This document shows, piece after piece, positions 8,440-57,574 of a DNA stretch of 64,000 bases. Origin of the DNA: Massalongia carnosa (taxonomy: Eukaryota); contig OZ287074.1 of assembly GCA_965645245.1 (NCBI GenBank), positions 1,550,001-1,614,000 on the forward strand, read 5' to 3'. Both the position numbers and the translations under genes were made by a program. The notes below the pieces were generated by a model. That model saw only the letters and a list, made by a program, of their open reading frames with translations. It had not been told where the DNA came from and searched no databases. Position 1 is the first letter of the stretch. The number at the start of each line of letters is the position of its first letter.

Positions 8440-11400
8440 TGGCATGTTGCTTCCGTGCAACCAAAGAAGTGGGATCGAACTCCATCGCGATAAGGAGTAG
8501 TAAAATATATAATATGAGGTATAGCATAAGTGGAAGGAGAGATTTAGAGAGGGCAATGGGTTAGGACAAGGGCAAGGGCAAATGATAAGTGAGGGTGAGG
8601 GTACAGACGAGGAAAAGGATTTGTATGAAAAGCAGGACAAAGCATTGACCAGGGTGCATACCTTTATTCTGGAGTCAGTTTCAGCACGGATGGTGAATCA
8701 TACGGCCTATACGGAACAGGACCCATACGACACCCTCATAGCTCTGAAACAACGGCTTAAACCTTCTAGCGCAAGCCTTTCTCTCGAAGTGGAAAGGAAG
8801 TTCCATCGTCTGGCCAAAGGACCTGGAAATCTGAACATAGAAGCTTGGCTAGATGAGTGGATAGATATGTATCATGAGGCCTAAAGGCGAAAGATTTTAG
8901 AGATCACTGGCGAAAGGGCCATCCGCGATTTTTTGCTAGCTGTCAAGACCTTCAACCCTTATTATACTAGCAATCGACGGGGATTTCGTAAGAACATCGA
9001 GATACAGAACCAAGGCATGGCCGAGAACCCAGTTCTAGGCCTAGGCCGTCAACAACAACAATTCACCATGGAACAGGAGATAGAGAGCCTGCGAGAGGAT
9101 TATCGCGAAAATCAGACCTTAGCATTAAATAACCCGGCCGCCCTAGTAACTCAGGCAAAACCTACCCTCAAAAGCAGAGATCAGGAAGGGGAGGACAAGG
9201 ATAATAAATGCAGGGAAGGGAGGGGGCCCATGTGTCTCTGTGGTGATAATATGTTTTATTCCAATTGTCCCTACCTCGTTCCTAGCAAACCACCACTAGG
9301 ATAGAAGGAGGACCCAGAGATAAGGAAAAAGATCGATGAGGCATTAAAAAATAAAGAAACGAAAGAAAGGGTCGAGGGCTTTCTGAAACGTCAGGCCGAA
9401 AAGTCAAATGCTTCTTCATCGTCTAAAACAGCCAACACTCCTACAAATGCATCAAGGACTGAAGGTGGTGGTGCATTCGTCACGACTGATAATTCTGCAT
9501 TTGCCACAGAAGTTTCTGGCATGGAGTCTCTGCTAATTCATGACGCGGCCTCATCAGTGCACATTTGCAATAGGTTGTCGGCCTACCTCTATAAGAAAAT
9601 CAGGGACTCATATAGCGATGAGTATCTGCAATCAGGAACTGACAAGGTCAGAATCGAAAGCTGGGGGGTGATACACACCGCTTTTAAGACACCTAACGGA
9701 CTCTATGGATCATCTCTTCAAAACGTGGCCTATGCAGCAAATTTTATGACGAGTATTGTTTCAGGTGCTCTTTTAGAAAGCAAGAACGTAAGCCTGAATT
9801 CCAGAGGACCTCATTTGTTCACCGGCGACGACCCTACTAAAGTCGGATTTTGCCTCTATCGCAATGGATCATACCTTACCTTCTCGGCCACAGGACTCCC
9901 ACATCCATTTCCAGAGGGGGTTGCGAAAATTGAGCCGGAACTTGATTCAACAGCAACTAATCCTTCGGCCTACGCGACTGAGGCTATACGGAGCAAGGCT
10001 GCAGAGGAATGGCATAGGATAATGAGTCACCCATCTGGTGATACAATCAGCCACTTGGAGAAATCAACAGAGGGAATAAAAGTCCTGGAGTCGGAAGTCC
10101 CTAAAACAAATCAATGCGAGACGTGTGCGTTGACCAAAAGTCAACGAATAATCTCTCGATCCACCAACAAATCAGAAGATAAACCGGAGCCTTTTCATCT
10201 TATATCCATAGACCTGATGCCTTTCGAGACGTCATTAAATGGGCACGAATGGGCGACCCACATAGCCTGTATAGCTACTGACTTCAACATTTTAGAGACT
10301 CATCGCAGCAAGTCTGACTGCAGAGAGTTCATTTTGAACACGATGGCTAGGATAAAATAGAGGTTTAAACGCGACGTCGTGTTCATACGTTCTGACAACG
10401 AGGGATCTTTTAACACCGCTTTCAGAGATGAAATCAAAGGCCTAGGAATTACCTTGGAACCTAGTAGTCCTGATACGCCGGAACAGAACGGGCATGCGGA
10501 ACGCAAAGGCAAGGGCATTGCGGATAGAGGCCGAGTTGCCTCATAACCTGTGGGTTGAGGCTATTCACACTGCTTGCTATTTAGCAAATCGCACACCTAT
10601 GGCGAAACATAACTGGAAGACGCCTTACGAACTAGTCACCTGCCAAAGCCTATTTTATCACATTTGAAGGTCTACGGATATAAGGCCTACCCGTTGAAAC
10701 ATCACATACCAAGGAAGCAAAACTGGAACCTAGGGCGCATATAGGATATTTGGTAGGCTATGATTCAACAAACATCTTCAGAATTTGGATACCATCAAGG
10801 CGCAAAATCATACGATCAAGGGACGTCCTTTTCGATGAGGACGAGGTCCACAGCCTTGTTGACCCACCAGACCTGTTGCATTTCCTCTCTACCACCGGAG
10901 ATAATGCACCCTACATCATTACTGATCGCATGCGAAATGCACTAGCTGAGTTAGATGCTGAGGACGAAAAACATCGTAGCACCTTTGACGAATTATTTGC
11001 AAATTCACCTACTATCGCGGAAAATCCTTTTATAACAGAAAAGCCTAGTATAGGACTTGATTGGCCATCTAGAAAAAGGCCTCATGACACAGCACCAAAC
11101 ATCCTTCCTACACCTACACCGTCCCTTAGTCCCTCACCAAGCACACTCATCGATTGAAAGATTATAATTCGTCAAAATGCTCAAATCGATGCAATCAACG
11201 ACAAACGCCAGAACACTTGTTATTGAATTGCATTCACTATTTCGATGAAATTCAAAACATGAAACAAACCATCGATACTACGATCAACTTGAATATGTTG
11301 TTTAATACAAAAATCGGAAATGACATTTTGATTAAATTCATTGTCAATAACAAAATCGCGACTAGAAAATAGATACTAGGTCAGCTTGATGACGATATTT

Positions 11401-15272: not shown

Positions 15273-17138
15273 ATCGGTCCTCCTCCTTCTACACCATCGG
15301 TCCTCCTCCTTCTACACCATTGGTCCTCCTCCTTCTACACCATCGGTCCTCCTCCTTCTACACCATCGGTCCTCCTCCTTCTACACAATCGGACTATCGG
15401 TCCTCACCACGGAGACGCCAAAGGCCTCACCGTGGGGCGACCGCCAAACATATAGATTTGCTACTATCTCTTCGCATCAAAACCATGCTAATTTAACGCG
15501 TTCACACGCGTCGCAGACGTACGTACGGAAGAGGATAAGAAGGCCAACCGCCGAAGGTAGAATGCGCGCGTCCCTGCACCATACTTCTAAGGGTACAAGT
15601 CCCTTCATGCAGTCATCAGCTGGAAGAAGATGTGGACCAAAGGAGCCGCATCATCCCCCACCCGGGCAAAGTAAACACGCGTTCTAGCTCCTGAGAGTTC
15701 AAGTCTCCCCATGCAGTCATCAGCTGGGATCAACAGAACGCGTAAAGGCACCGGGGCGAATGCTGTCATCTCAAGAAAACTCCATCTCGGAGCAGAATAA
15801 CAATATCCCATTTAATAGGCCCGGCCTGTTAAATAAAATTGAAGAAAACAGAGAATTATAAAACACATAGTCATCAATCACACGTTGTACAAAGTACACA
15901 GCCATAAAGCACACAGTCAAAAAGTACACAGTCACAAATATACAGTCACAAATATACAGTCACAAAACACACAGTCACAAAAAACACAGTCAAAAATCAA
16001 TAACACGTCCCTGTGAAGGGGGTTCTGCGGGGGCTCGTTAAGACAGATCTGCACCCCGTTAATATCGGATTACATATTTTTAGAGGTTCAAGGCCTTTCT
16101 AGCAGTCATCAGCTGAAAATAATGTATTTTGACACGGGCATAGTGTGGATTTGACACGGGTAGACCTCGATGGATCACAAAACGAATGAAAAGAGTTCAG
16201 CGGAACTTCGTTAATATGTTCTCGAAGACCTCGTTAATAAGATTTTCATAGACCTCGTTAACAACGTTCGGTCATAATCTTAAATGTTTAAGTCCTTTCA
16301 TGCAGTCATCGGCTGAGAGCTAAAGACGTACGACACGGGTCAGCTATGTCTATCACATGGGTCTCCTTCGCCTACAACACGGAGCCCTCCGGCTGAAAGA
16401 AATAAAACATATAGATACATAGTGTAGGGTCACACCCTACACGATACAAGGGATTTGGGTTATGAAAACCATCCGATTGATAGCTACCGTGAGCAACACG
16501 GCCCGAACCGGAGTCGTACCGGGGATGGTAGAGGCAACCTAGTCATCAAATAGGACACCCTTGGGACAAGAAGAGGGCAATATACGAGGACCCCGTTAAT
16601 TTATAACTGTCTAGGCCCTGAGCTAATAGACGACTTTCAAACGAGCACCCCTCCGAGTTGTCCTCGACTCGTTTTGGTTAGTAGGGACAGAAAATCGATA
16701 CTATACTGCCTGTTCAGGAGCATTGTGGTCGAAATCCCTGCGAGACATGGTCGGTTCATAAACGGGAGACCTTTATGAATAACGCGAAGTGGGCGTAAAA
16801 AACCCGTGAAGCGTGGTATGCAATGGCGGCCACCGTACGGAGACCGTCTGCATAGCCCGAGAGGACAGTATGCGCATGTCGGTGTATATAGAGCGGGGAA
16901 TGTCTATCTCGCTCGTAACGAGACCCCGTTGGTTCGCCGGCGCATGGGCTACGGCTAGACTCGCCCTTGATATATGCTTAAGGAGTAAACTTGGTTTGAC
17001 CTGGGCGAAAGGGACGTCGTTTACCCCAATCGTAGAATTCATCAATAGTCTTGGGCCGTAAAACGCACTAGTAAGATGAACGAAAACTGGGATAGAGACT
17101 TCACGAAGGAGATGTCAACTCTATTTTATCATTCTTAG
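15273..17138 (+). other. Unclassified ~1.87-kb structured non-coding repeat, copy 1 (putative retrocopied RNA)
   Basis: Colinear with three other copies. Five 23-nt repeats at the 5' end, four internal stem-loop modules, fixed 3' end TATCATTCTTAG. No TIR, LTR, poly(A) or long ORF. Confidence 0.85.
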
Positions 17139-19638
17139 CCCGAAACAAAAACGTTTTATCAAGTCTATTACTCGATGTCGAAGGAGCATTTGACTTTGTT
17201 TCGATTAATCAATTGCTAAATGTCATGAAAAAGCTGCATTTATCTCGCATAGTTATTCAATGGGTCAAGCATTTTATGACAAAACGATCGATCAATTTGA
17301 TATTCGATGAACACAAAAGCAAAACGTACTATATCGAATCTGGAATTCCACAAGGTTCACCTATTTCGCCAATTCTATTTCTGATTTATATTCGTTACTT
17401 ATTTCCGAAAATACGAATGAAATTCAATGCTCATTCACCTAGCTTTATAGACGATTTTGCAATATATGTCGAAAATAAAACTGCTAAACAGAATTGCAAA
17501 GAAATCGAAATTATCGTCAAAACAGCTTTTGATTGGGCCGCAACGAATAATGTCAAATTTGATGACGACAAATCTGAGTTGATTCACTTCGAAAAGTCAA
17601 GAAATGCATCAAAAGACAAAGTGCAATTACCAAACGGGACAATACTAGAACGGAAAAATTCTGTCAAATTGTTAGGGGTCTGGTTAGACCGAAAACTAAA
17701 TTACAAAAAACACGTCGAAACGCGAATTGCTTCTGCGAATCGATCGTTTTTCGCAATTCAAATTTGATGAAGTCTGAATGGGGACTAAAGCCAACTGCAT
17801 GCAGACAGCTCTATTTGTCATGCATTATTCCTATTTCGAACTATGGCTCAGAAATCTGGTATAATTGTCAAAAGAAATATGAAAAGCTATTTCGAATCTG
17901 CAAAATCGAATGATTCGAAAGATTTTAGGCACATTCAAAACCACGCCTGTTCAGGCGATGGAAATTGAATCGCATATTTTACCAGCCAAGCTACGATTGT
18001 TGATAAAAAATCAAAAATACGCAATTCGATTATTGAAGATTGCCGGAAATAATCCTATTTGTCAAAGAATTCACAGTACCTATTCGGTAAAATTCGAAAA
18101 CATCGGTTTTGACACTAGTTTATGGAACAACAGATATGCTGAATGGAGCGAAGACGAGAAAAAATCGAGTAAACCTCATCCTAGTCAGCTTATCCGTATT
18201 CTTTATTCCGTTTCGGATATAGTTCACAAAACTGATGATTTCGAATCAGTAAATAATTTCATCAAACCATGGAAGCCGTCTTGTAAAATCAAGTTCCAAA
18301 TCGAAAGATCCAAAGAAACAGCAAAGTCAAGTTATTATTTGACTTTATCAAAACTTCAATCAATAAACGCCGCTAAATCGCGAGTGTTACTCTATGCCGA
18401 TGAATCAAAAACGGAGTTTTCAACTTCCGCTGTCACATTTGCACCAATTATGCGAAATTGGAACAATTTCACCGATAACTTCAATCGTTTTATCGAAAAA
18501 GATTGTCTCCTCAAACATCATACGATTTCGAAAAGCGGGAAATTAAACAAACAGTCAAGCGTTAAAAACGCTGAACTGTATGCGATACTACAAGCAATAA
18601 AATGGGCATACAAATTGACAAGTGCGAATATTCTCTCCTATTTAGAAAAAACGATTTTGATTTTTTCCGATAGCATAAACGCGATAAACGAAATTTAGAA
18701 CTTGACAAATCATACTTACGCAAAACAAATTCGAAAATTCTCGAAATGCTTATTCGGAAACAATTATCAGGTGGTTCTACAATGGATTCCTAGTCATTCG
18801 AAAATCGTCGAAAATGAAATTGCAGATAAAGCAGCAAAAGTGGGACATAGTCGAATCCTTGTCGAGTCTTCGATAATAACATTTGATTATGTAAAGGGTC
18901 AAATAAATCGAAATATGTTAGCCACATGGGCGAATCAACGGCAACAATGCAAGTCAAAAGGCAAATACTATGAGAAATTCGAAATGCAGCCGGGCAAATC
19001 GAGTTTTTATTATCTGTCGAATAATTGTTCGAAATTGATATTTGCGACTATTATGCAAATGAAATTCGGACACGGTTATTTTCGATCATATCTGCACCGA
19101 TTGAAAGATTATAATTCGTCAAAATACACAGGGCGCTGCAAAGAACGTCAAACGCCTAAACACTTATTGATGAATTGCATACATTATTCCAATGGAATCC
19201 TAAACATGAAACAAAATATCGATACCACAATTACTTTAAAAATGTTGTTTAATACTAGGATCGGAAATAATATTTTGATTAAATTTATTGTTGATAACAA
19301 AATCGCGACTAGAAAATAGATGCTAGGTCATCTCGATAACGAAAATATCGATACGGGAGGTTTGGGAGAGATCGAGAAGTGAAATTAGAAATGATTTATG
19401 CTGGAATATTCACGAGCTTTACAAAAAGAAAATGTAGAATCGATATTTCGATTACTAAAGGTTATTACTAACACGGAGTAAAAACGGGACAATATTGACA
19501 ATACATAGTTGGGTTATAAAGGGTTGATTTATTTTGTAAAATAAAAACATATCTTAAAATAGTTTAGTGTCATAACCTTAGGTTGAATACACTTAATGAA
19601 TAAATAAAATAAAATAAAATAAAAAAAATATAAAAAAA
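17139..19638 (+). mobile_element. LINE family 1 subfamily A, 5'-truncated (RT-RNase H-3' end), frameshifted
   Basis: GIPQGSPISP, FIDD, LQWIPSHS...NEIADKAAK motifs; 3' UTR and (TAAAA)n tail. Confidence 0.95.
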
Positions 19639-31880: not shown

Positions 31881-33653
31881 ATCGGTCCTCCTCCTTCTAC
31901 ACCATCGGTCCTCCTCCTTCTACACCATCGGTCCTTACCACGGAGACGCCAAAGGCCTCACAGTGGGGCAACCGTCAAATATATAGATTTGCTCCTATCT
32001 CTTCGCATCAAAACAATGCTAATTTAACGCGTTCACACGCGTCGCAGACGTACGTACGGAAGAGGATACGAAGGCCAACCGCCGAGGGTAGAATGCGCGC
32101 GTCCCTGCACCATGCTTTTAAGGGTTCAAGTCCCTTCATGCAGTCATCAGCTGGAAGAAGATGTGGACCAAAGGAGCCGCATCATTCCCCACCCGGTCAC
32201 AGTCGACACGCGTTCTAGCTCCTGAGAGTTCAAGTCTCCCCATGTATTCATCAGCTGGGATCAACAGAACGCGTAAAGGCACCGGATCGAATGCTTTCAC
32301 CTCAAGAAAACTCCATCTCGGAGCAGACTAACAATATCCCATTTAATAGGCCCGGCCTATTAAATAAAATCGAGGAAAACACAGAGTCACAAAACACATA
32401 GTCATCAAGCAAACGTTATAAAGTACACAGTCACAAAGCATACAGTCACAAACATACAGTCACAAACACACAGTCACAAAATACACAGTCACAAAAAACA
32501 CAGTCACAAATCAATAACACGTCCCTGTGAAGGGGGTTCTGCGGGGGCTCGTTAAGACAGATCTGCACCCCGTTAATATCGGATTACATATTTTTAGAGG
32601 TTCAAGGCCTTTCTAGCAGTCATCAGCTGAAAATAATGTATTTTGACACGGGCATGGTGTGGATTTGACACGGGTAGACCTCGATGGATCACAAAACAAA
32701 TGAAAAGAGTTTAGCGAAACTTCGTTAATATTGTTCTCGAAGATCTCGTTAATAAGATTTTCATAGACCTCGTTAACAACGATCGGTTATACTCTTAAAG
32801 GTTCAAGTCCTTTCATGCAGTCATCGGCTGAGAGCTAAAGACGTACGACACGGGTCAGCTATGTCTATCACACGGGCCTCCTTCGTCTACAACACGGAGC
32901 CCTCCGGCTGAAAGAAATAAAACATATAGACACATAGTGTAGGGTCACACCCTACACGATACAAGGGATTTGGGTTATGAAAACAATCCAATTGATTGCT
33001 ACCGTGAGCAACACGGCCCGAACCGGAGACGTAACGGGAATGGTGGAGGCAACCTAGTCAACAAATAGGACACCCTTGGGACAAGAAGAGGGCAATATAC
33101 GAGGAACCCGTTAATTGATAACAGTCTAGGCCCTGAGCTAAAAGACGAATTTCAAACGAGCACCCCTCCGAGTTGTCCTCGACTCGTTTTGGTTAGTAGG
33201 GACGGAAAATCGATACTATACTGCCTGTTCAGGAGCATAGTGCTCGAAATCCCTGCGAGACATAGTCGGTTCATAAACGGGAGACCTTTATGAGTAACGC
33301 GAAGTAGGCGTATAAAACCCGTGAGGCGTGGTATGCAATGGCAGCCACCGTACTGAGACCGTCTGCATAGCCCGAGAGGACAGTATGCGCATGTCGGTGT
33401 ATATAGAGCAGGGAATGTCTATCTCGCTCGTAACGAGACCCCGTTGGTTCGCCGGCGCATGGGCTACGGCTAGACTCGCCCTTGATATATGCTTAAGGAG
33501 TAAACTGGGTTTGACCTGTGCGAAAGGGACGTCGTTCATCCCAATCGTAGAATTCATCAATAATCTTGGGCCGTAAAACGCAAAAGTGAGATAAACGAAA
33601 ACTGGGATAGAGATTTTACGAAGGAGATGTCAACTCTATTTTATCATTCTTAG
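31881..33653 (+). other. Unclassified structured non-coding repeat, copy 2
   Basis: Colinear with copy 1; two 23-nt repeats; same 3' end CATTCTTAG. Confidence 0.85.
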
Positions 33654-37488: not shown

Positions 37489-39310
37489 CTAAGAATGATA
37501 AAATAGAGTTGACATCTCCTTCGTGAAGTCTCTATCCCAGTTTTCGTTTATCTCACTGGTGCGTTTTACGGCCCAATATTATTGATGAATTCTATGATTG
37601 GGGTGAACGACGTCCCTTTCGCCCAGGTCAAACCCAGTTTACTCCTTAAGCATATATCAAGGGCGACCGTAGCCCATGCGCCGGCGAACCGACGGGGTCT
37701 CGTTACGAGCGAGATAGACATTCCCTGCTCTATATATAACGACATGCGAATACTGTCCTCTCGGGCTATGCAGACGGTCTCCGTACGGTGGCCGCCATTG
37801 CATACCACGCCTCACGGGTTTTTTACGCCCACTTCGCGTTATTCATAAAGGTCTCCCGTTTATGAACCGACCATGTCTCGCAGGGATTTCGACCACTATG
37901 CTCCTGACCAGGCAGTATAGTATCGATTTTCCGTCCTTACTAACCAAAACGAGTCGAGGACAACTCGGAGGGGTGCTCGTTTGAAATTCGTTTATTAGCT
38001 CAGGGCCTAGACTGTTATCAATTAACGGGTTCCTCGTATATTGCCCTCTTCTTGTCCCAAGGGTGTCCTATTTGATGACTAGGTTGCCTCTACCATCCCC
38101 GGTACTACTCCGGTTCGGGCCATGTTGCTCACGGTAGCCATCAATCGGATGGTTTTCACAACCCAAATCCCTTGTATCGTGTAGGGTGTGACCCTACACT
38201 ATGTGTATATATGTTTTATTTCTTTCAGCCGGAGGGCTCCGTGTTGTAGACGAAGGAGACCCGTGTGACAGACATAGCTGACCCGTGTCGTACGTCTTTA
38301 GCTCTCAGCCGATGACTGCATAAAAGGACTTGAACTTTTAAGAGTATGACTGAACGTTGTTAACGAGGTCTATGAAAATCTTATTAACGAGGTCTTCGAG
38401 AACAATATTAACGAAGTTCCGCTGAACTCTTTTCATTCGTTTTGTGATCCATCGAGGTCTACCCGTGTCAAATCCACACCATGCCCGTGTCAAAATGCAT
38501 CATTTTCAGCTGATGACTGCTAGAAAGGACTTGAACCTCTAAAAATATATACGCCGAAATTAACGGGGTGCAGATCTGTCTTAACGAGCCCCCGCAGAAC
38601 CCCCTTCACAGGGACGTGTTATTGGTTTGTTACTGTGTTTTTTGTGACTGTGTGTTTTTTGACTATGTGTTTGTGACTGTATGTTTGTGACTGTGTGCTT
38701 TGTACAACGTATGATTGATGACTATGTGTTTTGTGACTCTGTGTTTTCCTCGATTTTATTTAACAGGCCGGGCCTATTAAATGGGATATTGATATTCTGC
38801 TCCGAGATGGAATTTACTTGAGGTGACAGCATTCGCCCCGGTGCCTTTACGCGTTCTGTTGATCCCAGCTGATGACTGCATGGGGAGACTTGAACTCTCA
38901 GGAGCTAGAACGGGTGTCGATTGTGCCTGGGTGGGGGATGATGCGGCTCCTTTGGTCCACATCTTCTTCCAGCTGATGACTGCATAAAGGGACTTGAACC
39001 CTTAGAAGCATGGTGCAGGGACGCGCGCATTCTACCCCCCGGTGGTTGGCCTTCGTAACTTCTTCCGTACGTACGTCTGCGACGCGTGTGAACGCGTTAA
39101 ATTAGCATTGTTCTGATGCGAAAAGATAGGAGCAAATCTATGTTTGTCGGTCGCTCCACGGTGAGGCCTTTGGCGTCTCCGTGGTGAGGACCGATGGTGT
39201 AGAAGGAGGAGGACCGATGGTGTAGAAGAAGGAGGACCGATGGTGTAGAAGGAGGAGGACCGATGGTGTAGAAGGAGGAGGACCGATGGTGTAGAAGGAG
39301 GAGGACCGAT
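37489..39310 (-). other. Unclassified structured non-coding repeat, copy 3
   Basis: Reverse complement of copy 1; five 23-nt repeats; same 3' end. Confidence 0.85.
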
Positions 39311-39373: not shown

Positions 39374-40468
39374 TCCCGTTTGGTAATTCCAATGTGTCTT
39401 TCGATACATTTCTTGTCTTTTCGAAGTGAATCAGCTCGGATTTATCGTCATCAAATTTGACATTATTCGATGCGGCCCAATCAAAGGCCGTTTTGACTAT
39501 GATTTCGATTTCTTTGTAATTCTGTTTTGCAGTTTTATTTTCGACATATATTGCAACATCGTCAATAAAACTGTGAGAATGTGCATTGAATTTCATTCGT
39601 ATTTTTGGAAATAAGTGACGAATGTAAATCAGAAATAGAATAAGCGAGATAGGTGAGCCTTGTGGAAATCCTGATTCGACATAATATGTTTTGCTTAAAT
39701 TTTCATCAAATATCAAATTGATCGATCGTTTTGTCATGAAATGCTTGACCCATTGAATTATTATGCGAGATAATTTCAGCTTTTTCATAACATTTAGCAG
39801 TTGATTAATCGATACAAAGTCAAATGCGCCTTTGAAATCGAGTAATAAACATGATAGGACGTTTTTATTTCTATTTGCAATTTCAATATCATGAACAACG
39901 ATCATTACTGCGTCAATTGCAGAATGATTTTTGCGTCCGCCCATCTGTTCGATATCGAGTAAATTCAAATTTTCGCAGAAGTAGACTAGTCGATTTGAAA
40001 CGATTTTCTCAGCAATTTTACCAAGACAATTTAGTAATGTGATAATTCGATATGATTTTGGAAAAGAATAGTCCGATTTATTAGGTTTTTTCAGAACTGC
40101 ACCGAGTCCTGTCCGCCAGCATAACGGGTGATAACCGATTCGAATGAATTTCGAATAAATCATGAAAAACACGTTTTTCAACGATTGAAACGATTTTTGA
40201 ACAATTGTAAAATTGATTGCATCAGGTCCACATGCTTTCTTCGGATTAAATAAACTAATCGCATTTTTCAACTCGTTTTCCGTCAAATCTGGCCAATTAT
40301 CATCATTTACGCTGTCTTGATTTGATAAATCTTCCTCATTATCGTCAATAAATGGGTTTTTTGTATACATTGCTGACACAAATGCATCGCATTTGTCATC
40401 AAACTGAATATTTAGTTTGTTTTCATGTAGAATCGGGGGTATTTTTTCGAATATGCGCGGTTTAGTGT
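39374..40468 (-). mobile_element. LINE family 1 subfamily B RT segment (continues upstream at 45788-47055)
   Basis: ORF 39138-40379 RT motifs up to ELPNG; joins 45788 across a 12-bp TSD. Confidence 0.9.
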
Positions 40469-43400
40469 TTTTTATTTATTCATTAAGTGTATTCAACCTA
40501 AGGTTATGACACTAAACTATTTTAAGATATGGTTTTAATTTACAAATAAATCAACCCTTTATAACCCAACTATCTATCGTCAATATTGCCCTGTTTTTAC
40601 TCCGTGTTAGTAACAACCTTTAGTAATCGAAATATCGATTTTACAATTTGTTTTTGTAAAGCTCGTAAATATTCCAGCATAAATCATTTCTAATTTTACT
40701 GTTCGATCTCTCCCCAACCTCCCGTTTCGATATTTTCGTCATCGAGCTGACCTAGCATCCATTTTCTAGTCGCGATTTTGTTATCAACAATAAATTTTAT
40801 CAAAATATTATTTCCGATCCTAGTATTAAACAACATTTTTAAAGTAATTGTGGTATCGATATTTTGTTTCATGTTTAGGATTTCATTTGAATAATGTATG
40901 CAATTCATCAATAAGTGTTCTGGCGTTTGACGTTCGTTGCAGCACCCTGTGCATTTTGACGAATTATAATCTTTCAATCGGTGCAGATATGATCGAAAAT
41001 AACCGTGTCCGAATTTCATTTGCATAATAGTCGCAAGTATCAATTTCGAACAATTATTCGACAGATAATAAAAACTCGATTTGCCCGGCTGCATTTCGAA
41101 TTTCTCATAGTATTTGCCTTTTGACTTGCATTGTTGCCATTGATTCGCCCATGTGGCTAACATATTTCGATTTATTTGACCCTTTACATAAAGAAATGTT
41201 ATTATCGAAGACTCGACTAGGATTCGACTATGTCCCGCTTTTGCTGCTTTATCTGCAATTTCATTTTCGACGATTTTCGAATGACTAGGAATCCATTGTA
41301 GAACCATCTGATAATTGTTTCCGAATAAGCATTTCGAGAGTTTTCGAATTTGTTTTGCGTAAGTATGATTTGTCAAGTTCTGAATTTCGTTTATCGCGTT
41401 TATGCTATCGGAAAAAATCCAAATCGTTTTTTCCAAATTGAAGAGAATATTCGCAATTGTCAATTTGTATGCCCATTTTATTGCTTGTAGTATCGCATAC
41501 AGTTCAGCGTTTTTAACTCTTGACTGTTTGTTTAATTTCCAGCTTTTCGAAATCGTATGATGTTTGAGGAGACAATCTTTTTCGATAAAACGATTGAAGT
41601 TATCGGTGAAATTGTTCCAATTTCGCATAATTGGTGCAAATGTGACAGCGGAAGTTGAAAACTCGGTTTTTGATCCATCGGTATAGAGTAACACCCGCGA
41701 TTTATCGGCGTTTATTGATTGGATTTTTGATAAAGTCGAATAATAATAACTTGACTTTGCTGTTTCTTTGGATCTTTCGATTTGGAACTTGATTTTACAA
41801 GACGGCTTCCATGGTTTGATGAAATTATTTACTGATTCGAATTCATCAGTTTTGTGAACTATATCCGAAACGGAATGAAGAATACGGATAAGCTGACTAG
41901 GATGAGGTTTACTCGATTTTTTCTCGTCTTCGTTTTATTCAGAATATCTGTTGTTCCATAAACTAGTGTCAAAACCGATGTTTTCGAATTTCACAGAATA
42001 GGTACTGGGAATTCTTTGACAAATAGAATTATTTTCGGCAATCTTCAATAATCGAATTGCCGAATTTTGATTTTTCATCAACAATCGTAGCTTGGCTGGT
42101 TAAATATGCGATTCAATTTCCATCGCCTGAACAGGCGTGGTTTTGAATGTGCCTAAAATCTTTCGAATCATTCGATTTTGCAGATTCTGAAATAGCTTTT
42201 CATATGTCTTTTGACCGTTATACCAGATTTCTGAGCCATAGTCCGAAATAGGAATAATACATGACAGATAGAGCTGTCTGCATGCAGTTGGCTTTAGTCC
42301 CCATTCAGACTTCATCAAACTTTGAATTGCGAAAAACGATCGATTTGCAGAAGCAATTGGCGTTTCGACGTGTTTTTTGTAATTTAGTTTTCGGTCTAAC
42401 CAGACTCCTAACCATTTGACAGAATTTTTCGGTTCTAGTATTGTCCCGTTTGGTAATTGCACTTTGTCTTTTGATGCATTTCTTGACTTTTCGAAGTGAA
42501 TCAACTCAGATTTGTCGTCATCAAATTTGACATTATTTGTTGCGGCCCAATCAAAAGCTGTTTTGACGATAATTTCGATTTCTTTGCAATTCTGTGTGGC
42601 AGTTTTATTTTCGACATATATAGAAACATCGTCTATAAAGCTAGGTGAATGAGCATTGAATTTCATTCGTATTTTCGGAAATAAGTAACGAATATAAATC
42701 AGAAATAGAATTGGCGAAATAGGTGTACCTTGTGGAATTCCAGATTCGATATAGTACGTTTTGCTTTTGTGATCATAGAATATCAAATTGATCGATCGTT
42801 TTGTCATAAAATGCTTGACCCATTGAATAACTATGCGAGATAAATGCAGCTTTTTCATAACATTTAGCAATTGATTAATCGAAACAAAGTCAAATGCTCC
42901 TTTGACATCGAGTAATAGACATGATAAAACGTTTTTGTTTCGGTTTGCGATTTCGATATCATGAACGACGTTCATTACCGCATCGATTGCAGAATGATTT
43001 TTCCGTCCGCCCATTTGTTCAGTATCTAACAAGCTCGAATTTTGGCCGAGGTAGGCTAGTCGATTAGCAACTATTTTCTCCGCAATTTTACCAAGATAAT
43101 TCAGTAAGGTAATAATTCGATATGATTTTGGCAGCGAGTAGTCTGGTTTATTAGGTTTTTTTAAAACAGCACCGAGTCCTGTTCGCCAACATAACGGGTG
43201 ATAACCGATTTGTATAAATTTAGAATAAATAGTAAAAAACACGTTTTTCAATGGTTGAAACGATTTTTGAATTATTGTGAAATTGATTGCATCAGGTCCA
43301 CATGATTTCTTTGGATTAAACAAACTAATCGCATTTTGCAATTCATTTTCGGTTATATTCGGCCAATTGTTGTCATTTTCGCTTTCTTGATTCGTTAAAT

Positions 43401-43530
43401 CTTCAATATTATCATCCGTGAACGGGTTTTTTGTGTACATTGCTGACACAAACGCATCGCATTTGTGATCGAATTGAACATTTAACTTATTTTCATATTG
43501 AATAGGTGGTATTTTTTCGAACATGCGCGG
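40469..43530 (-). mobile_element. LINE family 1 subfamily A, 5'-truncated
   Basis: ORFs 42100-43524 (RT) and 40696-41694 (RNase H: YTDGSK, NAELYAI, FSDS, WIPSH); tail at 40469. Confidence 0.95.
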
Positions 43531-45264
43531 CTAAGAATGATAAAATAGAGTTGACATCTCCTTCGTGAAATCTCTATCCCAGTTTTCGTTCATCTCACTG
43601 GTGCGTTTTACGGCCCAAGACTATTGATGAATTCTACGATTGGGGTGAACGACGTCCCTTTCGCCCAGGTCAAACCCAGTTTACTCCTTAAGCATATATC
43701 AAGGGCGAGTCTAGCCGTAGCCCATGCGCCGGCGAACCAACGGGGTCTCGTTACGAGCTAGATAGACATTCCCTGCTCTATATACACCGACATGCGCATA
43801 CTGTCCTCTCGGGCTATGCAGACGGTCTCCGTACGGTAGCCGCCATTGCATACCACGCCTCACGGGTTTTTTACGCCCACTTCGCGTTATTCATAAAGGT
43901 CTCCCGTTTATGAACCGACCATGTCTCGCAGGGATTTCGACAGCTATGCTCCTGACCAGGCAGTATAGTATCGATTTTCCGTCCCTACTAACCAAAACAA
44001 GTCGAGGACAACTCGGAGGGGTTCTCGTTTGAAATTCGTCTATTAGCTCAGGGCCTAGACTGTTATCAATTAACGGGTTCCTCGTATATTGCCCTCTTCT
44101 TGTCCCAAGGGTGTCTTATTTGATGACTAGGTTGCCTCTACCATCCCCGGTACGACTCCGGTTCGGGCCGTGTTGCTCACGGTAGCCATCAATCGGATGG
44201 TTTTCATAACCCAAATCCCTTGTATCGTGTAGGGTGTGACCCTACACTATGTGTCTATATGTTTTATTTCTTTCAGCCGGAGGGCTCCGTGTTGTAGACG
44301 AAGGAGACCCGTGTGATAGACATAGCTGACCCGTGTCGTACGTCATTAGCTCTCAGCCGATGACTGCATGAAAGGACTTGAACCTTTAAGAGTATGACCG
44401 AACGTTGTTAACGAGGTCTATGAAAATCTTATTAACGAGGTCTTCGAGAACAATATTAACGAAGTTCCGCTGAACTCTTTTCATTCGTTTTGTGATCCAT
44501 CGAGGTCTACCCGTGTCAAAATACATTATTTTCAGCTGATGACTACTAGAAAGGACTTGAACCTCTAAAAATATGTACTCCGATATTAACGGGGTGCAGA
44601 TCTGTCTTAACGAGCCCCCGCAGAACCCCCTTCACAGGGACGTGTTATTGGTTTGTGACTGTGTTTTTTGTGACTGTGTGTTTTGTGACTGTGTGTTTGT
44701 GACTGTATGTTTGTGACTGTGTGCTTTGTGACTGTGTGCTTTGTACAACGTGTGATTGATGACTATGTGTTTTGTGACTTTGTTTTCCTCGATTTTATTT
44801 AACAGGCCGGGCCTATTAAATGGGATATTGTTATTCTGCTCCGAGATGGAGTTTTCTTGAGGTGACAGCATTCGCCCCGGTGCCTTTACGCGTTCTGTTG
44901 ATCCCAGCTGATGACTGCATGGGGAGACTTGAACTCTCAGGAGCTAGAACGCGTGTCGACTGTGCCCGGGTGGGGGATGATGCGGCTCCTTTGGTCCACA
45001 TCTTCTTCCAGCTGATGACTGCATGAAGGGACTTGAACCCTTAGAAGCATGGTGCAGGGACGCGCGCATTCTACCCCCCGGCGGTTAGCCTTCGTATCCT
45101 CTTCCGTACGTACGTCTGCGACGCGTGTGAACGCGTTAAATTAGCATTGTTTTGATGCGAAGAGATAGGAGCAAACCTATGTTTGACGGTCGCCCCACGG
45201 TGAGGCCTTTGGCGTCTCCGTGGTGAGGACCGATGGTGTAGAAGGAGGAGGACCGATGGTGTAG
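43531..45264 (-). other. Unclassified structured non-coding repeat, copy 4
   Basis: Reverse complement of copy 1; about 1.3 23-nt repeats; same 3' end. Confidence 0.85.
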
Positions 45265-45787
45265 GCTCGTCCGTCTCGAGTCTTATCTGTATCGAGTTCT
45301 GATATTCAGCGGTGAAAAGAGCTCAGAATATCAGGAGCACTGTTTAGGAAATGATATTTAACTGCATGGCTCTCGAGTGCAAGATCGTTTACTATCAAGC
45401 TTTTCTTTCCATTGTATCATAAGAGTAGAGAAGGTGGCAAGCTGATCGTTGGATCCTGTAGACCTGAAGCCTGCTTAATCACGAGGGAAGGCATATTATA
45501 AACTCAGAAAGACACCATAGTCGGTCGATGCAAGCCTTGAATACTCTCAATGAAACCCTATTCTGAAACCACATTCGAAAAATCAAAGGACGGAATGGAG
45601 TAGTAGTGAACAACAGTTTCCGAGGGTTTTCAATAGGTTTGAGAATCTTCTCGAAGATCACCATGACCTTACCTATGTTCCGTCAAGGTAAAGCGGTAGG
45701 ATGCCGACTGCACTTTTCAGCTACATCTCAAGCAGTCTCATGCTGAAACACAAATCGCGGAGAAAGCGTTGAATTTACTCGTTCAGT

Positions 45788-47055
45788 GCGGTTTAGTGTA
45801 TTTATACGCGGTAAATGCATCTTCATTTGCTGCATTTTCTAGAAAAGTCAACCATGTTTGTTGTTTTGCTTTTCGAATTGGATGAAAATACTCGATTCGA
45901 CTATGTTTAAACGTCCGATGACTAAAATCGGACGGATAATTCTTCCATTCTCGACGATGTCTGCACATGGTTTTTCGAAGTTCAGTTAAATCTTGCGACC
46001 ACCAATTTTTCGATTTTGCACAAATTTTCGTTTTCGGAATAAACATTTCAGCCGCGTTTTTGATAACGTTTTGCAAATATATCGCTGATTCTTCGAATTG
46101 TGATTATTCAATAAACTTTGAACTTGTGATTCGTAGATGGTTGAATTTTCGTCTAGATACTTCGCGAATTTATTCCAATCGGCTTTATTGCAATTGTATT
46201 TATTCGATAATGCGGTTGCATGTGACGTCAAGTTTTTGAAAGATGCGATTAGTTCAAATCGGATGACTTCATGATCAGAACCTGTGACTGCGTTTTCATC
46301 AATTGACCAATTTGTAATTGCATTTTCGATTTTAGAATTTGCAAAAGTTAAATCACTAACGGATGAAGAACTTCCAGAATGGGCGTAGTATGTACATAAG
46401 TCAGGTGTGTTTATCAAGCTACACCTGTTTAATTTCAACCATTTGACAAGATTCTCTGATCGAATTGCTTGTTGAATTTTCGAATTCCACCAGTTATGAT
46501 GTGCATTGAAATCTCCACAGATGACGAATTGATCAGTTGATTTAGGTTGTAATTGGATTAAAAGTCGATCGATCGTGTATGTTTCTCGATCACTTTGACT
46601 TTTTTCGTTATAAATATTGAAAATCTGCACTTTTCGAACTTCATCAATTGTAATTTCAATAATTTGCATATCGGAATCGTTAATAAGATCCGTTCTAGGC
46701 GTGCATTGCAGTTTGGAATTGCCATTTGTGACAAATATAGCTACTCTCGAGCGATAAGTCGCTATTTTTTGCATAATACATGTAAATTACGGATGTGATA
46801 TTGTTTTTTGATCTCGTGTCCATGGTTCCTGAAACAAAACAATATCAACTTGATTTGATAATGCATATTCCAAACACGATATCATTGCATTCGTTGACTT
46901 TGCACAATTATGTTGAATAAATTTAACATTTTGTGTATTTTCGATGTTTGTCAACGATTGCTGTCCTGCCATTACAAAGCGGCTAATTCGTCAGTCGATT
47001 TTCGAACATTTAACGATATAACTATTTCACAATTTTCATCATTGGATTGATGATT
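45788..47055 (-). mobile_element. LINE family 1 segment (ORF1 end, APE endonuclease)
   Basis: ORFs 46787-46972 and 45986-46774 (FIQHNC, FQEPW, GDFNAHH, GSDH). Confidence 0.9.
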
Positions 47056-50000
47056 TTTATTTTATTTATTCATTAAGTGTATTCAACCTAAGGTTAAGAC
47101 ACTAAACTATTTTAAGATATGGTTTTATTTTACAAATAAATCAACCCTTTATAACCCAACTATGTATCGTCAATATTGCCCCGTTTTTACTCCGTGTTAG
47201 TAACAACCTTTAGTAATCGAAATATCGATTTTAAAATTTGTTTTTGTAAAGCTCGTAAATATTCCAGCATAAATCATTTCTAATTTTACTGTTCGATCTC
47301 TCCCCAACCTCCCGTTCGATTTTTTCGTTATCGAGCTGACCTAGCATCCATTTTCTAGTCGCGATTTTGTTATCAACAATAAATTTAATCAAAATATTAT
47401 TTCCGATCCGAGTATTAAACAACATTTTTAAAGTAATTGTGGTATCGATATTTTGTTTCATGTTTAAGATTTCATTTGAATAATGTATGCAATTCATCAA
47501 TAAGTGTTCTGGCGTTTGACGTTCGTTGCAGCGCCCTGTGCATTTTGACGAATTATAATCTTTCAATCGGTGCAGATATGATCGAAAATAACCGTGTCCG
47601 AATTTCATTTGCATAATAGTTGCAAATATTAATTTAGAACAATTATTCGACAGATAATAAAAACTCGATTTGCCCGGCTGCATTTCGAATTTCTCATAGT
47701 ATTTGCCTTTTGACTTGCATTGTTGCCATTGATTCGCCCATGTGGCTAACATAATTCGATTTATTTGACCCTTTACATAATCAAATGTTATTATCGAAGA
47801 CTCGACTAGGATTCGACTATGTCCCGCTTTTGCTGCTTTATCTGCAATTTCATTTTCGACGATTTTCGAATGACCAGGAATCCATTGTAGAACCACCTGA
47901 TAATTGTTTCCGAATAAGCATTTCGAGAATTTTCGAATTTTTTTTGCGTAAGTATGATTTGTCAAGTTCTGAATTACGTTTATCGCGTTTATGCTATCGG
48001 AAAAAATCCAAATCGTTTTTTCCAAATTGAAGAGAATATTCGCAATTGTCAATTTGTATGCCCATTTTATTGCTTGTAGTATCGCATACAGTTCAGCGTT
48101 TTTAACGCTTGACTGTTTGTTTAATTTCCAGCTTTTTGAAATCGTATGATGTTTGAGGAGACAATCTTTTTCGATAAAACGATTGAAGTTATCGGTGAAA
48201 TTGTTCCAATTTCGCGTAATCGGTGCAAATGTGACAGCGGAAGTTGAAAACTCGGTTTTTGATCCATCGGTATAGAGTAAAATTTGCGATTTATCGGCGT
48301 TTATTGATTGAATTTTTGATAAAGTCGAATAATAACTTGACTTTGCTGTTTCTTTTGATCTTTCGATTTGGAACTTGATTTTACAAGACGGCTTCCATGG
48401 TTTGATGAAATTATTTACTGATTCGAATTCATCAGTGTTATGAACTATATCCGAAACGGAATGAAGAATACGGATAAGCTGACTAGGATGAGGTTTACTC
48501 GATTTTTTCTCGTCTTCGTTCCATTCAGCATATCTGTTGTTCCATAAACTAGTGTCAAAACCGATGTTTTCAAATTTCACCGTATAGGTACTGGGAATTC
48601 TTTGACAAATAGGATTATTTTCGGCAATCTTCAATAATCGAATTGCGTATTTTTTATTTTTCATCAACAATCGTAGCTTGGCTGGTAAAATATGCGATTC
48701 AATTTCCATCGCCTGAACAGGCGTGGTTTTAAATGTGCCTAAAATCTTTCGAATCATTCGATTTTGCAGATTCTGAAATAGCTTTTCATATTTATTTTGA
48801 CAGTTATACCAGATTTCTGAGCCATAGTCCGAAATAGGAATAATGCATGACAAATAGAGCTGTCTCCATGCAGTTGGCTTTAGTCCCCATTCAGACTTCA
48901 TCAAATTTTGAATTGCGAAAAACGATCGATTTGCAGAAGCAATTCGCGTTTCGACGTGTTTTTTGTAATTTAGTTTTCGGTCTAACCAGACTCCTAACCA
49001 TTTGACAGAATTTTTCGGTTCTAGTATTGTCCCGTTTGGTAATTGCACTTTGTCTTTTGATGCATTTCTTGACTTTTCGAAGTGAATCAACTCAGATTTG
49101 TCGTCATCAAATTTGACATTATTCGTTGCGGCCCAATCAAAAGCTTTTTTGACGATAATTTCGATTTCTTTGCAATTCTGTGTGGCAGTTTTATTTTCGA
49201 CATATATTGCAACATCGTCTATAAAGCTAGGTGAATGAGCATTGAATTTCATTCGTATTTTCGGAAATAAGTAACGAATATAAATCAGAAATAAAACTGG
49301 CGAAATTGGTGAACCTTGTGGAATTCCAGATTCGATATAGTACGTTTTGCTTTTGTGTTCATCGAATATCAAATTGATCGATCGTTTTGTCATAAAATGC
49401 TTGACCCATTGAATAACTATGCGAGATAAATGCAGCTTTTTCATGACATTTATCAATTGATTAATCGAAACAAAGTCAAATGCTCCTTTGACATCGAGTA
49501 ATAGACATGATAAAACGTTTTTGTTTCCTTTTGCGATTTCGATATCATGAACGACGTTCATTACCGCATCGATTGCAGAATGATTTTTCCGTCCGCCCAT
49601 TTGTTCGGTATCTAACAAGCTCGAATTTTCGCCGAGGTAGGCTAGTCGATTAGCAACTATTTTCTCCGCAATTTTACCAAGAGAATTCAGTAGTGTAATA
49701 ATTCGATCTGATTTTGGCAGCGAGTAGTCTGGTTTATTATGTTTTTTTAAAACTGCCCTGAGTCCTGTTCGCCAGCATAACGGGTGATAACAGATTTGTA
49801 TAAATTTAGAATAAATAGTAAAAAACACGTTTTTCAATGGTTGAAACGATCTTGAACTATTGTGAAATTGATTGCATCAGGTCCACATGATTTCTTTGGA
49901 TTAAACAAACTAATCGCATTTTGCAATTCATTTTCGGTTAAATACGGCCAATTGTTGTCATTTTCGCTGTCTTGATTCGTTAGATTTTCAATATTATCGT

Positions 50001-50601: not shown

Positions 50602-51511
50602 GGGCACACCAACGACCACCTATCGAAACACAAGTACCGCAACTTTTGATACTCTAAAACTTTCACAGTCAATTGAACATCTCTTTCTCAGTCATTTGAG
50701 CTCCTCCAGAGCAAAAACGGACTCAGATTGAGTGTAGGAGAGCTTTAGCAAAGCTCCAGCAGAGATTTTCTGCTGGTCGCACGCGACAGACGTGATAAAG
50801 CGCGCTCAAGAAGTTATAAAAAACAACAAATACCAACAATATCACCAAAAATCGCTCTTTTTTCTCACTTTCTTCTGTTCTGTTGTCGCATTACCCTCAA
50901 ATATTACTACATGAATTATCTACAAAAAATATCTACTGTCGCGGTACTGTACAACAACTGTCGCGACGACCAACTTTTTTGAAGTTCATTTCTCATTTAA
51001 GGTTACGGGAACTTCCGCAAGCTCAAATATTCACAGTATATTTCACGTATAATTTCTGCATATACCATTTTAGGCTTTATCGATCTCCATTGAACGGCCG
51101 GTCAACAGATCACTGAAAAGAAGGGGAAAAACGTCTGGAATAGGATTATACCAAAGATCCTATTTCAGATTAATCAGAATAGGAAGTCTCTTATTATCTT
51201 ACCTTGCCTTAGATCTATTTTTATCGCAAAAAAGCAAAAAAAAAACCTTTCATTATTTTCAACTATTGTAGTGTCTGGTAAAGGGTTAAATAAGATTTAC
51301 TGCCTAAGCGAGGAACGGTCTATTTTAACCCGATTAGGATTTATTTGACGAGCTATTGTCATATAAATAGGGATAGGAAAGCAAGAGTCGTTAGACCTGT
51401 AAATTGGTGTAAATTTCTATTCTGATTAGTACGTCCGGGGAACATCAGAATAAATTATTTGGTGGTGATAAAAGGGATATTGAAAAGGCATATCGATTTA
51501 TTTATTAAATC

Positions 51512-53086
51512 ATGTTCAATCCGGTACTCCCTAGGACTCGACGAATTATATCGAGAGCCTCCCCGGGAACACCCCTGAGCACTCCTCAAAACCCTCCCCA
51601 AATGGAATCTCCGGGGCTCTCGTCAGTAGGACTTATAGAAAAATCGCCTGTACTTGACGAGCCTATGGATCAATCACATGAATAATCGTCCGCCCCGACT
51701 ACGCCGACCCCAAAAGCAACCAAATTCCCATCTGGATAATTTACTACCAATCTACCCATGCCATCGTTAAATTCTAATATAGAATTAAGCCCGCCTATCA
51801 AACGTAACAAACGAAAAACATTCGACGAACGAGTAGAGGAAAGCCAAGAAGCAATCAGTCGAGCACAATCGATTGGATTACTCAAAACGGCTAAAGCCGC
51901 GTTATTGAAGTCATTTGTCTTAGATCAAAATCCAGAAACAGCAATAGTCATTGATAATGTCAATTCCTTATTGACAAAAAAATCAATTAATATCAAAACA
52001 ACACTAGACATGATGAATTGGAAATTGGACAAGGTAATTGATCAGACTAGTAATCGAACCTCAGAAACAACGCGAAAATCGACTCGGGTTCAACAAGTCA
52101 ATATGACTGAAAATCCAAATAAAGTCGTCAACACGAACGCACGAAAGGAAACCGCCGGGGTTACGAGTACAAAGGTCAATAACACGCCTCCATCCTGGAG
52201 TCAAATGCTTGGAAAAGCAACTGCGAATTCCGAAAAGTGGACCACTGTTTCCAGATCGAAAAATTCGAGTCAAACCTCGAACAAACTCGACAAAACCGAC
52301 GAATAAATTTCAATCAAACTCAGACGACTGATAATTACACCAAAAATTCAAATCGGCGATATCGACTCATTGAAACTTCGAGATCAAATCAACGCGCAAT
52401 TCAGCAACGCGAAGTTAGATAGCTTAATCAACACGGTCGAAAAATCGAAAACCGGTCAGAATATCGTTCTCACTACTAGTTCGAAAAACACTGCTGCAGA
52501 ATTGTTGGAAAACAAATCTATATGGGAACATATGTTCGATGCACAAAGAATTCGAAAAGACGAATCCTGGTTTAAAGTGATCGCACATGGAGTAAATATT
52601 GCAACGTTTGATCAAAATATGCAATTTTTGCAAAACGAAATCCAGAAATTCAACCTTAACATAGAATTGTGCGATTTACCCAGATGGCTAGCGCGAGATC
52701 GCGAAAATAAAGTCAATTCTTCGGTCGTTTTGACTTTTAACAATCGAAATCAGGCCTTAAACGCGTTAAAAGGCGTAAATATCGCGGGAAAACACTGTGA
52801 CACGGAAATATTTACTTCCGTTCGTCCGAATACACAATGTATTAATTGTCAAAAATTCGGACACAAGCATTATCAGTGTCGAAACAAATCAAAATGCAAT
52901 ATTTGTGCACAAAATCATGAAACACGTAATCATGAATGCATAACATGCAAATCGAAAACTGCGTGTGCACACGTTGTTGTGAAATGTGCAAACTGCAATA
53001 AAAATCATCAATCAAATGATGAACATTGTGAAATGTTTACTGCATTAAATCCACGAAAATCGGCTGACGAATTATCCGCCTTATAA
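51512..53086 (+). pseudogene. LINE ORF1 (gag-like, Pro-rich N-terminus, three Cys/His knuckles) with in-frame stops
   Basis: ATG 51512 is in frame with ORFs 51758-52306 and 52370-53086; CINCQKFGHKHYQC, CNICAQNHETRNHEC, CANCNKNHQSNDEHC. Confidence 0.88.
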
Positions 53087-57322: not shown

Positions 57323-57574
57323 AATCAGAAACGATTTATGCTGAAACAGTTACGAACTTACAAAGATAAATTGTAAAATCGATAATTTTCGATTACTATA
57401 GGTTGTTACTAACACGGAGTAAAAATGGGGAAAAATTGACGATACATAGATGGGTTATAAAGGGTTGATTTATTTGTAATATAGAAACATATCCTAAAAT
57501 AGTTTAGTGTCATAACCTTAGGTTGAATACACTTAATGAATAAAAAAAAAAAAAAAAAAGATTGTTCCGTTGTT

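Follow-up and report, generated by a model that had tools for sequence, protein, structure and literature searches.

Candidate RNA modules with a T-arm-like hairpin recur in a non-coding element joined to 5'-truncated LINEs in Massalongia carnosa

The stretch of DNA examined here comprises 64,000 nucleotides (nt) of Massalongia carnosa (assembly GCA_965645245.1, contig OZ287074.1, positions 1,550,001 to 1,614,000; 'the window' hereafter, with positions counted from its first letter). It is a nest of non-LTR (long terminal repeat) retrotransposons, or long interspersed nuclear elements (LINEs), with endonuclease, reverse transcriptase and RNase H domains. Within this nest lie four copies of one non-coding element of ~1.75 kb, here called X, which share a mutual identity of ~94%, and in all four the 3' end of X is joined directly to a LINE in the same orientation. 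Each copy carries four short modules that would fold as three-way junctions around a hairpin resembling the T-arm of transfer RNA (tRNA), and comparison with relatives elsewhere indicates that the fold of these modules has very probably been under selection.

The four copies, c1 to c4, occupy 15275-17138 (+), 31883-33653 (+), 39308-37489 (-) and, for the part of c4 common to all copies, 45264-43531 (-). Read from its 5' end, c1 consists of tandem 23-mers, modules M1 to M4, a degenerate fifth unit, a 3' domain and a sharp 3' end, ...CATTCTTAG(CC). Every match in the window to the motifs GTTCAAGTC and CAGTCATCRGCTG falls within the four copies: the former occurs 12 times against 0.71 expected from shuffled sequence (0/100 shuffles reach 12), and the latter, allowing at most one mismatch, 15 times against 0.07 expected. 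The ~23-nt tandem repeats at the 5' end (CGGTCCTCCTCCTTCTACACCAT; 15275-15390 and 31883-31930 on the forward strand, 39308-39195 and 45264-45225 on the reverse) vary in number from about 1.4 to 5 units of CGGUCCUCCUCCUUCUACACCAU in the window, and could represent a promoter or a variable 5' end. A related element in metagenome locus L064 opens with a different but similar C/T-rich repeat. Between M2 and M3 there are A-rich microsatellite-like repeats (CACAGTCACAAA and similar; 15880-15995, with equivalents at 44650-44790) whose length differs among copies and among sequencing runs. Upstream of its tandem repeats, c4 alone carries 523 nt of extra 5' sequence (45265-45787, -) that has no other match in the window. 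This extra sequence also lacks a match in the related loci, and contigs cover it much more thinly than X; it may be a third RNA of a tripartite chimera or 5' read-through from a source locus.

The LINE family to which X is joined has an A-rich (TAAA)n tail and falls into two subfamilies, ~86% identical, with reading frames that are broken in the copies seen. Its reference copy (50622-57559, +) carries endonuclease, reverse transcriptase and RNase H domains and begins with the 5' end common to copies, GAAACACAAGTACCG... The four LINE parts that follow X all start at different positions of this reference, namely 55079 after c1, 52287 after c2, 55796 after c3 and 54492 after c4. The part fused to c1 (17141-19619, +) thus corresponds to reference 55079-57559 plus the A-rich tail, and that fused to c4 (40468-43530, -), a member of the second subfamily, to reference 54492-57551 plus the A-rich tail. 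At c4 the unit of X and LINE interrupts a LINE of the first subfamily (45788-47061 and 39374-40466), with CACTAAACCGC on both sides (before 45787 and after the LINE tail at 40467); the inserted order is the 523-nt extra sequence, X, the second-subfamily LINE from 54492 to its tail, and then CACTAAACCGC again. Because CACTAAACCGC flanks the whole unit, X and the truncated LINE must have integrated together, with a target-site duplication of 10-11 bp. Such a duplication was read for c4 only, c1 to c3 holding nested insertions.

Two other accounts of this layout were considered and rejected. Site-specific insertion of a LINE beside a resident X is incompatible with c4, where the duplication encloses X and LINE as one unit. 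A short interspersed nuclear element (SINE) with a LINE-like tail does not fit either, as X ends tail-less in ...CUUAG(CC), unlike the 3' end of the LINE with its A-rich (TAAA)n. The preliminary description of this locus, made from the letters of the window, had called the module-bearing sequence a 'passenger element', a term that needs narrowing: X forms the 5' part of chimeric retrocopies in which a 5'-truncated LINE supplies the 3' part, and is not cargo within a LINE. The association extends beyond the window. In locus L077 reverse transcriptase-like sequence follows directly after a truncated X, and in L064 an endonuclease open reading frame lies ~600 bp after X, both in the same orientation as X; contigs of three other sequencing runs diverge from the window at the same X 3' end, and one of these passes from this end into LINE sequence at yet another position.

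In all four window copies the first base of the LINE part is the one that follows AAA, AAAC or AAACC in the intact LINE (at 17141, 33654, 37488 (-) and 43530 (-)), and the fifth junction, on contigs of another run, follows ACA. Given that the LINE is A-rich, this AAA(C)(C) context is a hint and not a rule. The start of the c4-fused LINE part, 54492, lies inside the duplicated target, 54485-54495, such that junction and target site coincide within a few bases (40455-40470 and 45788-45800, -); a shared preference for the context TAAA-CCGC is a possibility.

A covariance model built from the modules was run on the window and on 99 metagenome loci. In the window it recovers 16 modules of ~45 nt, four per X copy, at the places where the preliminary description had put its motif. 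In c1 these are M1 (15578-15630, +; 62.4 bits), with its T-loop mutated to UACAAGU; M2 (15682-15734, +; 64.5 bits), with outer stem ACGCGUUCU/AGAACGCGU; M3 (16071-16123, +; 57.7 bits), a class A module with flanks CGUUAAU ... GACACGGGCA; and M4 (16271-16323, +; 52.4 bits), also class A, decayed and with a CGGCUG variant of its second hairpin. Their counterparts lie at 32109-32161, 32213-32265, 32585-32637 and 32786-32838 in c2 (+), at 38962-39014, 38858-38910, 38499-38551 and 38298-38350 in c3 (-), where M4 has broken pairs, and at 45001-45053, 44897-44949, 44525-44577 and 44346-44398 in c4 (-). The stems quoted earlier and their outward extensions (ACGCGTTCT/AGAACGCGT; TACATATTTT/AAAATAATGTA) can be read directly in the sequence. 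The degenerate fifth unit, present downstream of M4 in the window copies (16594-16655, +, in c1), keeps the flanks CGUUAAU ... ACGAGCA and has a plain hairpin instead of the three-way-junction top; its counterpart at 1835-1887 of L064 is a complete module.

Relatives were sought by scanning public metagenome contigs with the pattern GTTCAAGTC-N7-12-CAGTCATC, which gave at least 130 matches at 117 or more loci, a pattern short enough for chance matches to be expected in a collection of this size. Nonetheless, 25 of the 130 matches listed go on to complete the second hairpin with its other five bases, against ~0.25 by chance, and a looser search found 56 module-like sites, window included, among the matches listed; those in L050 and L097 were set aside as chance, their contexts being unrelated. 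The covariance model separates the family cleanly, with 56 matches at 44.8 bits or more (the 16 window modules plus 40 spread over 16 of the 99 loci), the next match at 28.1 bits, and chance-matched loci at 24.7 bits or below. GTTCAAGTC is exact in 12 of the 16 window modules and in 29 of 31 distinct modules from outside it, the exceptions among the latter being L003c (GTTTAAGTC) and L077a (ATTCAAGTT). Neither 596 Gb of prokaryote genomes nor a viral contig set contains a match to the full 22-base motif. In L049 a fungal-specific transcription factor domain adjoins a module, and one X-bearing sequencing run is labelled lichen metagenome; the carrier contigs are probably fungal.

The module consists of a variable closing stem (P1), one invariant U, the T-arm-like hairpin (P2), four to five variable bases and a second hairpin (P3). 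Since the four X copies are near-identical, the window contributes only four independent modules, and pairing was therefore counted on an alignment of 35 modules, made up of the four of c4 (the cleanest window copy) and the 31 distinct modules from metagenome loci, with 12 near-copy window modules and exact duplicates between loci left out. This alignment is gapless except for one column, and pairs were counted on P1 (6 bp), P2 (5 bp) and P3 (5 bp). Paired cells make up 82.9% of the total against 73.0% after shuffling, and the covariation score is 0.465 against 0.259, with 0/500 shuffles reaching the observed value in either case. Shuffling as a control can be inflated by relatedness, sliding less so, and when the 3' partners were slid by one to three columns only 37.3-58.4% of cells remained paired.

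The signal lies in P1 and P2. P2 (columns 12-16/24-28) is 94.9% paired, with both-sided changes at all five pairs, and has the geometry of a T-arm: a 5-bp stem, a 7-nt loop, UUCAAGU, that is invariant or nearly so, and a closing G-C in 33 of the 35 modules. The stem had earlier been described as 3-4 bp; with its full 5 bp, the junction between P1 and P2 is reduced to the single invariant U. In P1 the four core pairs each show three to five pair types and both-sided changes, and each fails to pair in only 1-5 of its 35 cells. Further out, both tested pairs are mostly unpaired (22/35 and 25/35) because the stems go on with bulges at differing offsets. P3, CAGU-CAUCR-GCUG, is nearly invariant. 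Two of its pairs never vary, a third is U·G in 33 of 35 modules, C-G in one and U-A in one, so that both exceptions still pair, and a fifth pair exists only in the eight modules with the CGGCUG variant. The covariation of P1 and P2 across 35 modules, 31 of them from outside the window, supports the earlier proposal that compensatory change among the modules reflects selection on RNA structure. Loss of covariation in a larger alignment had been named beforehand as a test of that proposal, and the covariation persisted. We consider it very probable that the module has been selected as an RNA structure.

Non-Watson-Crick cells in P1 and P2 comprise 28 G·U, 11 A·C and 9 others, the cells behind this count not being independent of one another, and the conserved U·G of P3 would be a C·A mismatch if read from the other strand. 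The excess of G·U over A·C and the U·G of P3 favour the module-sense strand as the RNA that would fold, which is the strand on which the motif had first been written.

The modules appear to be parts of larger structures. Many of them, M3 and M4 included, cap a further stem (P0) set between two conserved single-stranded stretches, CGUUAAU (5') and RACACGGGCA (3'); outside these there is another variable complementary stem and, often, the loop pair a second time. RNAalifold, applied to 15 units of the P0 type, recovered P2, P3 and P0, with both-sided changes in 7/7 P0 pairs; P1 was lost in this alignment owing to indels. In M2 and its relatives, which form a second class, the outer stem is instead of an ACGCGU type. 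The hairpin units are rod-like and 110-140 nt long, and the modules cap long imperfect hairpins in the 5' half of X. The short words GACACGGG and AGACCTCGTTAA, repeated around M3 and M4 (16140-16260), duplicate conserved loop sequences found in the class A hairpins, which suggests nested or duplicated outer loops. In L003 (1303-1538), L022 and L111 a class A unit is tandemly duplicated with a period of 183 bp, and the number of modules per element therefore differs between lineages.

The 3' half of X forms a second conserved structured domain, also non-coding (16596-17139, +, in c1; about 520-545 nt in relatives). Between the last module and the X 3' end lie 518-545 nt in six of the seven loci measured, and 1058 nt in the seventh, L049. 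When nine copies of the domain are aligned, near-identical blocks alternate with variable stretches, and homology stops at one point, ...AUC.AUC.UUGGC, in all but the most divergent locus, L049; in the window X ends in ...CUUAG, followed by CC in c1 and c4. For this domain RNAalifold predicted 85 pairs, 38 of them with compensatory change, and a folding energy of -59.27 kcal/mol (covariation term -8.92) on the sense strand against -40.9 (-4.34) on the antisense strand, a difference that likewise favours the module-sense strand. Whole elements could be delimited by comparing L064 with L093 and L003 with L022, which differ in their flanks, and measure about 1.47 and 1.8 kb; relative to L064, L093 is an internally deleted copy with both ends kept. 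From the first module to the shared 3' end, c4 is 60-70% identical to related loci over 400-870 bases. The tblastx matches between them span all six frames at similar strength, so that the conservation of X is not protein-coding; a coding X was ruled out on this ground, and Pfam searches of open reading frames in the related loci returned host-gene neighbours and LINE domains only.

Comparison with known RNA families gave no counterpart. Rfam 15 has no match at gathering score in the whole window, and over 43400-45900 at expect values up to 10 it returned nothing relevant, tRNA and ribozyme models included. The best sub-threshold match, 26.3 bits to a bacterial small-RNA model (gathering score 50) on a hairpin of the 3' domain, is a chance hairpin resemblance. 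ARAGORN found no tRNA genes in the window. A hammerhead was discarded: CUGAUGA appears solely on the strand opposite the P3 loop, the helix layout, read by eye, differs, and no Rfam model matches. Telomerase RNA was dropped as a candidate, X being multi-copy, and no conserved block resembling a telomere template was apparent by eye, without a formal test. The literature searched contains the P3 13-mer in neither DNA nor RNA form, and what it returned, as far as its accessible text goes, for a T-loop three-way junction in retrotransposons was confined to telomere and ribosome papers.

The closest parallel in layout comes from the rice blast fungus, whose MINE elements consist of a 5'-truncated MGL LINE preceded by WEIRD, a 1.1-kb non-coding RNA with no known function (Gogvadze et al. 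2007, PMC2104539; earlier reference, Fudal et al. 2005; here and below as described in the accessible part of that paper). MINE fusions have 10-20-bp repeats on both sides and template-switch hot spots with a sequence motif, and their origin was put down to a jump of reverse transcriptase from LINE RNA to WEIRD RNA (PMC2104539). X resembles MINE in that a non-coding 5' part of ~1-2 kb runs straight into LINE 3' parts of varying length that share its orientation, and in junctions at apparently preferred sequence contexts. At c4 there is also a duplication that flanks the whole unit (10-11 bp, against 10-20 bp in MINE). It differs in the context itself, which is after AAA(C)(C) in X as opposed to GCC*A/U in MINE. 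The part of that paper available reports neither solo copies of WEIRD nor relatives in other genomes, and a housekeeping RNA was its authors' suggestion (PMC2104539); relatives of X, by contrast, occur on many contigs, and after some copies no LINE is recognisable. X also has repeated structured modules, and none are described for WEIRD in the literature searched, so far as its accessible text goes; no description of WEIRD structure was found there. Stress-induced MINE transcripts were reported later, according to the portion of the report available (PMC3978060). We regard X as probably a MINE-like LINE partner.

A second parallel is provided by chimeras of L1 with U6 small nuclear RNA (snRNA) and other small RNAs in mammals, which have been attributed to template switching by reverse transcriptase (PMC2104539). 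As in U6-L1, a full-length structured RNA is joined at its own 3' end to a same-orientation, 5'-truncated LINE and the whole is flanked by a duplication. The U6-L1 partner is a known cellular RNA of ~100 nt; X is ~1.5 kb, of unknown function, and behaves as a repeat family.

With moderate confidence, we propose that X is a LINE-dependent hitch-hiker RNA with folded module domains, similar to WEIRD. LINE reverse transcriptase would start on the A-rich tail of LINE RNA, leave that RNA part-way and, by a putative template switch, go on at the 3' end of X RNA, and the fused X-LINE copy would then be integrated. For the modules we can offer guesses. They might be multivalent binding platforms or tRNA-elbow mimics that would hold X RNA near the LINE ribonucleoprotein, near tRNA-binding host factors or near the ribosome, or they may instead stabilise and protect X RNA. 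Any specific binding partner is doubtful at best.

The resemblance of P2 to a tRNA T-arm lies in its 5-bp stem, its UUCAAGU loop (the U54 U55 C56 R57 A58 pattern) and its closing G-C, and the arm of M1 resembles the T-arms of real tRNAs. Unlike tRNA, the module has no cloverleaf, and a second small hairpin sits between the T-arm-like hairpin and the 3' strand of P1. Unlike a tRNA or the head of a SINE, it also occurs several times per element, and runs of T speak against transcription of the whole of X by RNA polymerase III (Pol III). A closing stem with two hairpins, of which one is short (4 bp) and bears a conserved loop, is also found in the CR4/5 region of telomerase RNA (P5-P6-P6.1) and in the Alu domain of the signal recognition particle (SRP). 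The CR4/5 junction binds telomerase reverse transcriptase, and the Alu domain docks at the ribosome beside the nascent LINE protein. The likeness of the module to either is topological only, with no sequence or Rfam model match, and the multiplicity of modules in X has no counterpart in them.

Several points weigh against the proposal that X is a hitch-hiker with selected RNA modules. P3 shows no covariation, and its pairing rests on conservation and two one-sided changes. The folding energy of single modules is near that of shuffles for M1 (z = -0.41) and M4 (z = -0.63); M2 (z = -3.33) and M3 (z = -2.36) both have long outer stems. The family includes near-duplicate loci (L011/L069, L059/L096 and L003/L022/L111), which limits the independence of the modules. 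No RNA dataset is among the listed sequencing runs with X, which says nothing either way. The core of the module fits the B-box/T-loop consensus, with the equivalent of G53-C61 present in 33 of 35 modules, and may therefore have a further role at the level of DNA. As regards the LINE, no recognisable one lies within 600-1000 bases after X in L002, L003, L022, L011 and L068, and hence the fusion is either not obligatory or has decayed beyond detection in these loci. Finally, the likeness between X and WEIRD is one of layout, and two published WEIRD primers gave only chance-level fuzzy matches, an uninformative result.

The alternative that survives best, although we think it unlikely, is that X is a housekeeping non-coding RNA of the host, its copies being dead retro-pseudogenes made by LINE template switching and its fold being kept through one master gene per genome. 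U6-L1 and WEIRD-MGL chimeras have this same layout, with cellular RNAs as their 5' parts in the account available (PMC2104539). The fold is conserved between distant copies, and those in the window show decay, as in the mutated T-loop of M1 in c1 and the broken pairs of M4 in c3. Several features are unexpected for such a gene: copies of X without a detectable LINE partner exist, the internal deletion of L093 with both ends kept is typical of mobile elements, the number of 5' tandem repeats varies, and no known housekeeping RNA family in Rfam matches. X is moreover found in thousands of contig pieces of one run in which the adjoining 523 nt is far thinner, a hint and not a copy number.

A signal acting at the level of DNA, in which the GGTTCAAGTCC cores would be B-boxes bound by TFIIIC and serve as internal Pol III promoters or chromatin boundaries, with the RNA fold irrelevant, is in our judgement very unlikely. 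The core is repeated at least four times per element, and the Pol III B-box core GGTTCRANNCC is present in the modules, but its flanking G/C positions covary instead of staying fixed. TFIIIC binding would not account for the invariant second hairpin, for G·U cells outnumbering A·C cells, or for compensatory change in P1, P0 and the distal part of P2. Pol III would be stopped by the runs of four or more T on the X sense strand, of which there are five, the first inside M3; an A-box was not seen by eye (no formal scan was made), and neither a tRNA gene nor a tRNA-like Rfam match was found in the window.

A similarly low probability attaches to the idea that the module or the 3' domain is a novel ribozyme, self-cleaving or self-ligating, whose reaction defines the X 3' end or links X to LINE RNA. 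That end is fixed whatever follows it (in the four window copies, at least seven loci and three other runs), invariant single-stranded cores are held by variable stems as in small ribozymes, and the LINE parts of the window always start after AAA, AAAC or AAACC. The last of these is weak evidence in an A-rich LINE, with one further junction following ACA; at least four cleaving modules would fragment the RNA, no known ribozyme family matches even at expect values up to 10, and the antisense CUGAUGA lacks a hammerhead layout. Least probable of all, indeed barely plausible, is a small-RNA precursor, in which the rod-like hairpins of 110-140 nt would be Dicer-like substrates yielding small RNAs that silence the element or the LINE, as Dicer needs neither the invariant junction cap, the T-loop nor the conserved internal loops, and conservation peaks in unpaired cores and not in stems.

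Apart from X and the LINEs, the window contains an open reading frame at 9305-10360 (+) with a weak, sub-threshold match to the GAG-pre-integrase family (25.2 bits; family cut-off, 28.4). It is probably part of a broken LTR retrotransposon.

Returning to X as a LINE-dependent hitch-hiker, it is tempting to extend the proposal, although we consider the extension improbable as a whole. X would then represent a widespread fungal class of ~1.5-kb structured hitch-hiker RNAs, possibly including WEIRD, that spread by programmed template switching and not by mimicry of the LINE 3' end. The T-arm junctions would bind the LINE reverse transcriptase or ribonucleoprotein, as CR4/5 does telomerase reverse transcriptase, or else engage the ribosome as a tRNA elbow does; the ...UUGGC(C) acceptor end would be displayed, and perhaps produced, by the 3' domain.

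Chimeras of a LINE with an RNA of unknown function have been known from one fungus since 2005-2007. What appears to be new here, being absent from Rfam and from the literature searched, are the repeated T-arm three-way junctions, the class A hairpins with a conserved internal loop and the large structured 3' domain, and X thereby adds a sizeable structured RNA family that Rfam lacks. The element offers a handle on how a LINE enzyme comes to copy a non-coding RNA that lacks a LINE-like tail, and on whether tRNA-like elbows serve LINE-dependent copying. Even if X should turn out to be merely a decaying pseudogene family of a host RNA, an undescribed conserved fungal non-coding RNA would still be indicated.

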